Positions 9,075 to 12,983 of a DNA stretch of 64,000 nt are shown here, in pieces. The DNA is taken from NCBI RefSeq assembly GCF_024223415.1, contig NZ_CP100500.1; one strand, written 5' to 3'. This DNA comes from Escherichia coli. GTDB taxonomy: Bacteria > Pseudomonadota > Gammaproteobacteria > Enterobacterales > Enterobacteriaceae. The notes under the pieces are model-generated. The model was not told where the DNA came from, searched no databases, and saw nothing but the letters and a program-made list of their open reading frames with translations. The position numbers and the translations under genes are program-made. Each line of letters begins with the position of its first letter. Position 1 is the stretch's first letter.

Positions 9075-12000
9075 ATGGGTAAAGGCAGCAGTAAGGGGCA
9101 TACCCCGCGCGAAGCGAAGGACAACCTGAAGTCCACGCAGTTGCTGAGTGTGATCGATGTCATCAGCGAAGGGCCGATACAAGGACCGGTGGATGGATTA
9201 AAAAGCGTGCTGCTGAACGGTACGCCGGTGCTGGACAGTGAGGGGAATACCAATATATCCGGCGTCACGGTGGTATTCCGGGCCGGTGAGCAGGAGCAGA
9301 CGCCGCCGGAGGGATTTGAATCCTCCGGCTCCGAGACGGTGCTGGGTACGGAAGTGAAGTACGACACGCCGATTACCCGGACCATCACGTCGGCAAACAT
9401 CGACCGTCTGCGCCTGACCTTCGGTGTGCAGGCACTGGTGGAAACCACCTCAAAGGGGGACCGGAATCCGTCGGAAGTCCGCCTGCTGGTTCAGATACAG
9501 CGTAACGGTCGCTGGTTAACGGAAAAAGACATCACCATTAAGGGCAAAACCACCTCGCAGTATCTGGCCCCGGTGGTGGTGGGTAACCTGCCGCCGCGCC
9601 CGTTCAGTATCCGGATGCGCAGGATGACGCCGGACAGCACCACAGACCAGCTGCAGAACAAAACGCTCTGGTCGTCATACACCGAAATCATCGATGTGAA
9701 ACAGTGCTACCCGAACACGGCACTGGTCGGTGTGCAGGTGGATTCGGAGCAGTTCGGCAGCCAGCAGGTGAGCCGTAATTATCATCTTCGCGGGCGTATT
9801 CTGCAGGTGCCGTCGAATTATAACCCGCAGACGCGGCAATACAGCGGTATCTGGGACGGAACGTTTAAACCGGCATACAGCAACAACCCGGCCTGGTGTC
9901 TGTGGGATATGCTGACCCATCCGCGCTACGGCATGGGGAAACGTCTTGGTGCGGCGGATGTGGATAAATGGGCGCTGTATGTCATCGGCCAGTACTGCGA
10001 CCAGTCAGTGCCGGACGGCTCTGGTGGCACGGAGCCGCGCATCACCTGTAATGCCTGGCTGACCAGGCAGCGTAAGGCGTGGGATGTGCTCAGTGATTTC
10101 TGCTCGGCGATGCGCTGTATGCCGGTATGGAACGGGCAGACGCTGACGTTCGTGCAGGACCGACCGTCGGATAAGGTGTGGACCTATAACCGCAGTAATG
10201 TGGTGATGCCGGATGATGGCGCGCCGTTCCGCTACAGCTTCAGCGCCCTGAAGGACCGCCATAATGCCGTTGAGGTGAACTGGAGTGACCCGAATAACGG
10301 CCAGGAGACGGCGACAGAGCTTGTGGAGGACACGCAGGCCATTGCCCGTTACGGTCGTAACGTCACGAAGATGGATGCCTTTGGCTGTACCAGCCGGGGG
10401 CAGGCACACCGCGCCGGGCTGTGGCTGATTAAAACGGAGCTGCTGGAGACGCAGACCGTGGACTTCAGCGTGGGTGCTGAAGGGCTTCGCCATGTACCGG
10501 GCGATGTCATTGAAATCTGTGATGATGACTATGCCGGTATCAGCACCGGTGGTCGTGTGCTGGCGGTGAACAGCCAGACCCGGACGCTGACGCTCGACCG
10601 TGAAATCACGCTGCCATCCTCCGGTACCACGCTGATAAGTCTGGTTGACGGAAGTGGCAATCCGGTCAGCGTGGAGGTTCAGTCCGTCACCGACGGCGTG
10701 AAGGTGAAAGTGAGCCGGGTTCCTGACGGCGTTGCCGAGTACAGCGTGTGGGGGCTGAAGCTGCCGACGCTGCGCCAGCGCCTGTTCCGCTGCGTGAGTA
10801 TCCGTGAGAACGACGACGGCACGTATGCCATCACTGCCGTGCAGCATGTACCGGAAAAAGAGGCCATCGTGGATAACGGGGCGCACTTTGACGGCGACCA
10901 GAGCGGAACGGTGAATGGTGTCACGCCGCCAGCAGTACAGCACCTGACCGCAGAAGTCACCGCAGACAGCGGGGAATATCAGGTGCTGGCGCGCTGGGAC
11001 ACGCCGAAGGTGGTGAAGGGCGTGAGCTTCCTGCTTCGCCTGACCGTGGCCGCGGATGACGGCAGTGAGCGGCTGGTCAGCACGGCCCGGACGACGGAAA
11101 CCACATACCGCTTCAGGCAGCTGGCGCCGGGGAACTACAGGCTGACAGTCCGGGCAGTAAATTCCCGGGGGCAGCAGGGAGACCCGGCGTCGGTATCGTT
11201 CCGGATTGCCGCACCGGCAGCGCCGTCGCGGATTGAGCTGACGCCGGGCTATTTTCAGATAACCGCCACGCCGCATCTTGCCGTTTATGACCCGACGGTA
11301 CAGTTTGAGTTCTGGTTCTCGGAAACGCGGATTACCGATATCAGGCAGGTTGAAACCACAGCCCGCTATCTTGGCACGGCGCTGTACTGGATAGCCGCCA
11401 GTATCAATATTAAGCCGGGCCATGATTATTATTTTTACGTTCGCAGTGTGAACACTGTCGGTAAATCGGCATTCGTGGAGGCAGTCGGTCGGGCGAGCGA
11501 TGATGCCGAAGGTTACCTGGATTTTTTCAGGGGGGCGATAAATAAAACGCATCTGGGACGGGAGATCAATGAACGCATTGATGCCTCTGCACGGCGCACT
11601 GAAGTTGAGCAACTGGAGAATGAGATTAACCGCGAAATGACGCAGCTGGAGAAAGATGTGAGGCAGCGTGCGGAGCGTGATATCGCCGGGGTGACGAAAA
11701 AAATCACGGCGTCTGAAAACAGCATAACGGAACTGGTGGCGAAAAAGAGCGGTGAACAGTCGCTGGCCATTGCGAAAGTCGACAGGAAAGTTGACAGCGT
11801 GAGCAGTGAAATCCGGCAGACAGTGAGCAGGAGCACGGAGGAGAACAGCCGACAGATAGCGCAGGTCAGGCAGTATGTTGATGATAAAAGTGCGCAAATA
11901 AGTACTGTTGTGGCGAAAAAGAGCGCTGAACAGTCAATGGCCATTGCGGAAGTTGACAGAAAAGTTGACAGGATGGGAAGCGAAATCCGGCAGACAGTAA

Positions 12001-12983
12001 GCAGGAGCACGGAGGAGAACAGCCGACAGATAGCGCAGATCAGACAGTATGTTGATGATAAGGGAAGTCAGATCAAACAGAGCACGGATAAAAAACTGGG
12101 ATCCTGGAATGCCAGCATTGAGCAGATACAGAAAGTTCAGGAGGACACGCGCCGGAACCTGAACAGCATGTGGGCTGTGAAGCTGCAGCAGACACGGGAT
12201 GGACGTCTCTATATTGCAGGTATTGGTGCCGGAATCGAAAATACGTCTGACGGAATTCAGAGTCAGATCCTGATGCAGGCAGATCGTATTGCGATGATTA
12301 ACCCGGAAAATGGCAATACAACACCTTTGTTTGTGGCTCAGGGTGATCAGCTGTTCATGAATGATGTTTTCATGAAGCGACTGTTTGCGGTGAGTATCAC
12401 CTCATCCGGCAATCCCCCGGCATTTTCCCTGACACCGGACGGGCGTCTGACGGCGAAAAATGCCGATATCAGTGGTAACGTGAATGCGAATTCGGGCTCG
12501 CTCAACAACGTCACGATTAACGAGAACTGTCGGGTTCTGGGAAAACTGTCTGCCAGCCAGATTGAAGGCGACCTGGTGAAGACTGTGGGGAAAGCCTTTC
12601 CCCGTAATAACAGCTATGCCAGTGGCACGATAACCGTCACTGTTTACGATGATCAGGGATTCGACCGGCAGATTATCATTCCCCCGGTGCTTTTTCGCGG
12701 GATGAAACATCAGAATTTCAACAGTAAGAACCAACAGTCATACTGGTATTCAACCTGTAAACTGCAGGTACTGAAGAACGGACAGGAAATCTTTCATGAG
12801 CCCGCGACAGATGTCAGCAGGGTATTTTCATCGGTGATTGATATGCCCGCGGGATACGGGAATGTCACCCTGACGTTCAATGTTTCTTCATATGGTGCAA
12901 ATAACTGGACGCCAACAACCAGTATCAGTGACCTTCTTGTTGTTGTGATGAAGAAAGCCACTGCAGGCATCACGATTAGCTGA
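9075..12983 (+). CDS. J: Host specificity / tail tip central fibre protein, lambda J-like, with expanded coiled-coil insert
   Basis: 1302 aa; N-terminal about 800 aa and C-terminal about 270 aa follow lambda gpJ ([28 protein letters not shown]..); the middle region is longer than in lambda J (1132 aa). Confidence 0.85.
11736..12083 (+). repeat. In-frame tandem direct repeat, 2 x 174 bp (58 aa), inside J
   Basis: GTGGCGAAAAAGAGC..GATGATAA unit starts at 11736 and again at 11910; protein [51 protein letters not shown] twice. Confidence 0.75.

Follow-up and report, generated by a model that had tools for sequence, protein, structure and literature searches.

In phage lambda, residues 809-861 of the tail tip protein gpJ form the AHS, a three-helix bundle below the FNIII domains, and residues 841-861 become β-strands atop the fiber prism once LamB has been bound (PDB 8IYK, 8XCJ/8XCK; Ge & Wang 2024, PMC11101478). 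At the same place, the central fiber of the F7 pyocin has a 163-residue trimeric coiled coil, which refolds to a β-prism on cell binding (He et al. 2026 preprint, PMC12874032). The same switch was predicted for 21 of 24 siphophage fibers, with the E. coli phages HK639 and mEp390 named and a strand motif, SxSxxMxxLxS, defined; lambda, according to these authors, lacks an extensive switch (PMC12874032). For phage T1, the C-terminus was described as "visibly longer" than that of lambda, with residues 821-1172 of gp33 unresolved and given by an AlphaFold3 prediction only (PMC11945409).

Here we analyzed gene J, encoding the central tail fiber or tip attachment protein, in a 64,000-nt stretch of Escherichia coli DNA (contig NZ_CP100500.1 of assembly GCF_024223415.1; the window). 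The gene (9075-12983, + strand) encodes a protein of 1302 aa whose stalk is much longer than that of lambda, is built of 29-residue repeats grouped into 58-residue units, and belongs to a series of alleles with different numbers of these units. The extra segment is probably a modular length extension of a trimeric α-helical stalk that lies between the FNIII domains and the distal β-prism and receptor-binding domain.

Position and helical character of the stalk

The window J is identical to WP_254539419.1, a protein recorded on a 5.56-Mb contig of an E. coli chromosome, and the window is thus prophage DNA. The stretch holds a lambda-like tail operon in which L, K and I (7022-9014; PHROG minor tail and tail assembly families) are directly upstream of J, giving the order L-K-I-J expected for a lambda-type J. 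In alignments with the solved lambda J chains, residues 1-838 of the window protein matched lambda residues 1-838 end to end (1831 bits) and, with the full-length query, residues 1013-1301 matched lambda 842-1131; a shorter query placed the borders of the intervening segment at lambda 839 and 844. Compared to lambda J (1132 aa), the window J is 170 aa longer, as had been estimated in a preliminary description of this DNA. The extra segment comprises J residues 840-1013 (174 aa; 11592-12113, + strand) in place of lambda residues 840-843.

The domain order found with Pfam is that of lambda J: Ig/FNIII (PF24489), tail-tip fiber (PF09327) and receptor-binding (PF12421). The second Ig/FNIII-like domain (J 716-818; 11220-11528, + strand; E 7.8e-40) is directly upstream of the stalk, while the tail-tip fiber β-prism domain (J 1015-1142; 12117-12500, + strand; E 2e-28) and the C-terminal receptor-binding domain (J 1179-1302; 12609-12980, + strand; E 6.5e-37) follow it. 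Together with the lambda alignment, these matches bear out the earlier placement of the extra material after the conserved body and ahead of the distal receptor-binding part. For J 819-1014, Pfam gave nothing significant, and only weak matches to helical-repeat families. The closest solved relative of the receptor-binding domain is "A8 gpJ 713" (9wca/9wcb), with 465 bits versus 311 for lambda's own LamB-binding domain.

The flanks of the segment are homologous to the lambda AHS. The conserved start of the stalk (J 809-839; 11499-11591, + strand) aligns with lambda 809-839, in the upper AHS helix (809-840), and its conserved end (J 1014-1031; 12114-12167, + strand) aligns with lambda 844-861, in the part of the AHS that turns to β-strands after LamB binding (PMC11101478). 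Since both flanks fall within the lambda AHS, the extra segment is inserted in the middle of the stalk. The two stalks belong to the same protein family and have the same position and flanks, both lying between FNIII-2 and the β-prism fiber, but that of lambda has 53 residues versus ~223 in the window J, where the 174 extra residues are arranged in 29- and 58-residue repeats. Lambda has neither the segment nor any such unit. The "insert" of the preliminary description is thus a real segment, though it is better seen as reflecting a very short stalk in lambda than as an insertion peculiar to this phage.

The sequence of the segment has a helical signature. It lies in a proline-free stretch of 295 aa (J 782-1076), and residues 840-1013 include no Pro, five Gly and five Leu, with 35% charged residues. 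Self-comparison of the stalk gave autocorrelation peaks at lags of 29, 58 and 87, making 29 residues the base repeat. When J 830-1032 (11562-12170, + strand) was written in rows of 29, seven rows were obtained, with common hydrophobic positions at 12, 15, 19, 26 and 29/1. The hydrophobicity spectrum peaked exactly at a period of 3.625 (29/8) with a power of 172, a value reached in none of 1000 shuffles (maxima 54+/-12). As a tandem repeat by itself loads the harmonics of 29, we also shuffled the 29 columns while keeping the rows; in this control, 0.45% of permutations reached the observed power at the helical period (P = 0.0045). A homologue with a single unit likewise peaked at 3.625 (P = 0.004). 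The periodicity, the proline-free stretch and the alignment of the flanks all point to a continuous amphipathic helix bordered by AHS-homologous sequence.

The segment had been called a coiled coil, and this holds in that it is helical and coiled-coil-like with a period of 3.625. A canonical heptad, however, is not seen: the power at period 3.5 was 2.6 (~3), versus 172 at 3.625, and 29 residues correspond to four heptads plus one residue. Judged from sequence, the stalk fits an extended amphipathic helix whose hydrophobic seam is almost straight, as might be expected in a non-heptad bundle. In the AlphaFold2 (AF2) monomer, residues 829-917 and 923-1030 are helical at low confidence (mean pLDDT 43). 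The core positions are mostly Ile and Val, and an Ile/Val core favors trimers. Entries of lambda J contain three chains each, from which we infer that the window stalk is also a trimer.

Repeat units and the series of alleles

Two adjacent 58-aa units stand out in the stalk. Unit A spans J 888-945 (11736-11909, + strand) and unit B spans J 946-1003 (11910-12083, + strand), in the coordinates and frame first proposed for them. They are merely the best-preserved pair of the older 29-residue array. Tandem Repeats Finder reported a single array of 174-bp period at 11736-12061 (score 554; 1.9 copies, 90% matches and no indels); just four tandem-repeat regions of the window, this one included, have a score of 150 or more. 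The duplication had been described as exact and the units as near-identical, but A and B differ at 30 of 174 nt, 14 of these differences falling within the first 152 nt and the other 16 within the final 22, and share 46 of 58 residues (nine synonymous and 12 non-synonymous codon differences). Where core positions differ, the exchange is conservative (L/M, V/M, V/I), and the longest identical run common to the two units is 39 nt. We searched by eye in the preceding sequence for a source of the divergent last 22 nt of unit A and found no convincing nucleotide similarity, just the I-x-x-[LV]|V-x-K-K pattern of the 29-aa register. At its 3´ end, unit B is similar to the single unit of one-copy alleles. 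A further element, the 11-residue unit QLENAINREMT (J 846-856; 11610-11642, + strand), is present once in the window J.

The preliminary description had raised the question of copy number in related prophages, and alleles with one, two or three units were indeed found. A homologue search with the insert returned almost exclusively fragments at contig ends, as J breaks short-read assemblies, and gave no census of copy number; the allele data come instead from unit-level BLAST, fetched loci and exact-pattern scans. Among sequenced phages, the flanks match many lambdoid phages in which the segment is missing, and a related stretch was found only in PhiR49_2 and PhiR40_1 (54% protein identity). 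A J-like gene is present in 4650 of 5426 complete E. coli genomes, and a match to one unit was detected in 740 E. coli genomes, with 720 records at 60-80% identity and 22 at 95% or above. The two-unit arrangement, of the same length and at 98-99% identity, is present in at least 21 complete E. coli genomes, making it unlikely that two-unit alleles are assembly errors. Exact-pattern scans additionally revealed two units in two viral contigs and one metagenome contig and a single unit in another metagenome contig (L013).

Ordered by unit number, the series starts with lambda J (1132 aa, lambda receptor-binding domain), which has no unit. PhiR49_2 and two similar loci (L007 and L009) have a J of 1228-1232 aa with one diverged unit and a lambda-like distal end, and the partial J of L013 has a single A/B hybrid unit, also with a lambda-like distal end. 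The window J and that of E. coli NRZ14408 (L006), both of 1302 aa, have units A and B and a lambda-like end of the A8 gpJ type. Two units are also found in three loci with a J of 1169 aa (L011, L012 and L014) and in two with a J of 1180 aa (L005 and L008), the latter with a doubled 11-aa QLENAINREMT, all of them with a short C-terminus. Finally, E. coli AR_0085 (L003) and ECCNB12-2 (L004) have a J of 1238 aa with three units (A, A, B), the doubled 11-aa unit and the short C-terminus. The doubling of QLENAINREMT in the 1180- and 1238-aa alleles is in tandem, with a 1-nt difference between copies, and the sequence is absent from PhiR49_2.

PhiR49_2 and PhiR40_1, which are induced ECOR13 prophages, and ~720 E. 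coli genomes have a stalk architecture and 29-aa register like those of the window. Their homologous single unit has ~77% nucleotide identity, with 54% protein identity over the segment. The PhiR49_2-type J differs from that of the window in having one unit rather than two, in lacking QLENAINREMT and in its length of 1228-1232 aa.

A search of the representative library with one unit as query returned only 16 hits, among which two with multi-stretch matches (P0030 and P0032) proved to be unrelated proteins with 14-aa "EHSRQIAELR" repeats. Another candidate from the representative library, a partial J of 538 aa (P0017), has an extra 29-residue duplication in both the stalk and the prism domain. 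We set it aside as a possible assembly chimera, given that no encoding contig is on record and the junctions are at shared words; if real, it would represent a 29-aa (8-turn) step.

The comparison of alleles also bears on the age of the duplication, which had been thought to look recent. Across alleles, the first 152 nt vary at 0-1 positions in unit A and at 0-2 in unit B, but between A and B there are 11-14 differences in this part, plus 16 in the last 22 nt. Thus, each unit is found again in other E. coli prophages with 0-2 nt changed, while A and B are 27-30 nt apart in every allele. Each unit being near-constant between alleles and yet diverged from the other, the duplication is not recent; it is old and predates the spread of these alleles. 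The three-unit alleles are different in this respect, their two A copies having no difference in AR_0085 and one in 174 nt in ECCNB12-2. This extra A copy, which is not present in the window, is a truly recent and exact duplication.

In L013, the single unit is identical to A as far as nt 71, and from nt 90 it is identical to B. Polarized with the diverged one-unit outgroup, it has the derived state of A at Ser21 and that of B at Ile44, and is therefore a deletion product of recombination, the reciprocal of an A x B crossover, rather than an ancestor of the two-unit form. Unequal homologous recombination between units explains these gains and losses. Two J genes with this stalk were also noted in different prophages of single genomes, at 3092307-3096215 and ~4584874 in NRZ14408 (NZ_CP158426) and at 2053982-2057698 and 2773721-2777626 in ECCNB12-2 (NZ_CP033635), where one is a three-unit and the other a two-unit allele. 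Two stalk-bearing prophages in one genome provide substrates for recombination between prophages within one cell.

That several lengths coexist in E. coli, even in a single genome such as ECCNB12-2 with its three-unit and two-unit J, and that the same stalk works with two distal ends, could mean that any helix-compatible length is tolerated and that copy-number changes are by-products of recombination. We consider such neutral drift improbable. A and B have each been kept to within 0-2 nt across alleles, core changes are conservative, and the only length steps seen, of 58 and 11 residues, preserve phase (16.0 and 3.03 turns, respectively, with 3.625 residues to the turn). Steps of these sizes would keep the hydrophobic seam in phase, fitting the constraint of a helical bundle.

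Distal ends, neighboring genes and possible fold switching

The sister alleles match the window stalk through "...LFMNDVFMK" and then change to a short C-terminus, "...NNVLRVRLGRL", with two small ORFs downstream of it, while the window allele continues into the lambda-like prism and receptor-binding domain. The short C-terminus (L003) is homologous to the end of the HK639 central fiber (30% identity over 306 aa, E 5e-36). One stalk joined to two distal ends indicates that the stalk recombines as a module of its own, separately from the receptor-binding part. The segment had been placed in a region of host-range determinants, but the stalk itself is not a specificity determinant, since an identical stalk is joined to two unrelated distal ends.

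The two small ORFs (74 and 220 aa; 4885-5771 in L003, from AR_0085, and likewise after J in L004, L005 and L008) occupy the position of the PyoF11/PyoF12-like genes of F-type pyocins and HK639, and the larger one matches PHROG 425, "membrane associated protein". No similarity of these ORFs to HK639_24/25 was detectable, such homologues being <25% identical (PMC12874032). The window J is instead followed by a side-fiber gene at 13042, with PyoF11/PyoF12-like accessory genes absent there. This gene (13042-14847) encodes a side-tail-fiber-like protein of 601 aa with 45-bp, collagen-like Gly-X-Y units, ~14 copies at 13507-14134 (76% matches) and three at 14425-14572 (92% matches), and is a second repeat-built, probably length-variable fiber beside the J stalk; the fiber genes of sister loci vary from 1329 to 1713 bp. 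Further downstream, a 469-aa ORF (15876-17285) contains a 99-bp tandem repeat (16514-16717; 33 aa per unit, with 2.1 copies and 93% matches). Its match is to PHROG 9547, of unknown function, with weaker matches to families of adhesins and tail proteins, and it may be another fiber or adhesin with in-frame repeats.

The proximity of the side-fiber gene to J, together with acidic patches in each unit (TEEN, VDD), would be compatible with a docking function, in which each 58-aa unit would bind side fibers or accessory proteins and copy number would change the number of appendages. There is a parallel in the F7 pyocin, whose side fibers, three trimers, attach to a short acidic stretch or gap of the coiled coil (PMC12874032). 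We regard this as very unlikely for the window stalk. The fiber encoded at 13042-14847 matches tail-fiber families over its N-terminal ~135-210 residues, and its counterparts in sister loci are named "prophage tail fiber N-terminal domain-containing protein" in RefSeq.

The similarity to HK639 raises another alternative, that the stalk is a metastable, fold-switching power element. It would collapse to a β-prism after receptor binding, shortening the fiber and driving the tail tip to open, with the number of units setting the stroke and the stored energy. This is compatible with a stalk extension, to which it adds a mechanism. In the window J, as in the central fibers of the F7 pyocin, HK639 and mEp390, a long helical segment separates the FNIII domains from a β-prism seed, and the HK639 fiber C-terminus is collinear with the window J, weakly, over a region that starts at FNIII-2, takes in the stalk and ends in the first prism strands (BLASTP, 23% identity over 330 aa, E 2e-14); the alignment with the sister allele L003 is better (30%, E 5e-36). 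In addition, lambda residues 841-861, which are part of the same stalk, do become β-strands (PMC11101478), and the homologous segment is kept in the window J. The core residues are the β-branched Ile and Val, with only five Leu in 174 aa.

However, the strand motif that marks the fold-switching fibers was not enriched in the window stalk (2 matches versus 3.2 expected, P 0.8) or in its one-copy homologue, in a crude residue-class scan that was negative at both thresholds, while HK639 as a positive control was enriched (12 matches versus 5.6+/-2.3, P 0.016). The window stalk is also far more charged than that of HK639 (35% versus 18%, with 8% versus 16% Ala). Its hydrophobicity spectrum had no signal at a period of 2.0-2.2, so that the stalk lacks a period-2 pattern, and the similarity to HK639 inside the stalk is weak and may reflect composition. 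Also unlike the F7 pyocin and HK639 class, the window locus has a lambda-type receptor-binding domain and no accessory ORFs. Membership of the window stalk in the fold-switching class is thus not established, and we consider a power element doubtful, if more plausible than drift or docking. Similarly, and a little less probably still, the 58-residue units might serve as "stroke-length" modules in a metastable stalk, which would change from a three-helix bundle to a β-prism after receptor binding. If so, prophages with one, two and three units would be a natural allelic series for testing how much stored conformational energy a non-contractile tail requires for opening and for reaching the membrane.

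A length-variable stalk in the J family

We therefore favor the modular extension of a helical stalk. In this model, each 29-residue repeat would make eight helical turns (period 3.625), so that the helices would be nearly straight, and the repeats are grouped into 58-residue super-units, of which A and B represent an old duplication, probably under purifying selection. Runs of up to 39 identical nt shared by A and B would let unequal homologous recombination add or remove whole units, each in a step of 58 residues or 16.0 turns. If helical, a unit would contribute 58 x 0.15 nm, or ~8.7 nm, and the whole 174 aa would extend ~26 nm beyond lambda. For comparison, ~17 nm lie between the tube and the cell surface in early lambda complexes (Ur-lambda paper). 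The bundle would probably have trimeric helical geometry, and its length may set reach through surface layers or match that of side fibers.

Several points weigh against this interpretation. The sole model of the stalk is the AF2 monomer, with its mean pLDDT of 43, and the periodicity indicates an amphipathic helix, not an oligomeric state. The effect of length and the benefit of reach are suggested by reasoning from the model. The net gain of 170 aa over lambda does not make a whole number of 29-residue repeats. Finally, the lambda AHS partly refolds after receptor binding (PMC11101478), and a static spacer may be too simple.

Among other J-like proteins, T1 gp33 (PDB 9L9P) has a C-terminal third longer than that of lambda, and its residues 909-1074 weakly match window J 901-1074 (E 6e-5), though no 58-aa units were found in it. 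Given HK639, and T1 and the F7 pyocin as described in the respective papers, long stalks are therefore common in J-like proteins, with lambda at the short extreme. The unit-number polymorphism reported here was not found described in the literature searched, and tandem-unit copy-number variation is not mentioned in PMC12874032 (no occurrences of "repeat" or "duplicat"). Length polymorphism in a fibrous phage protein is in itself unsurprising, and a repeat-built, length-variable central-fiber stalk is a modest variation on a known theme.

How the tube of a non-contractile tail approaches the membrane and opens is nonetheless an active question, as reflected by the lambda-LamB structures of 2024 and the F7 pyocin switch of 2026. 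Stalks with zero, one, two and three units, with identical units and two interchangeable distal ends, represent matched length variants that could be used to test the effect of stalk length on reach, on adsorption through surface polysaccharide and on the energy of tip opening. For engineered fibers, they suggest a design rule, by which steps of 58 residues (16 turns) would preserve the helical register.

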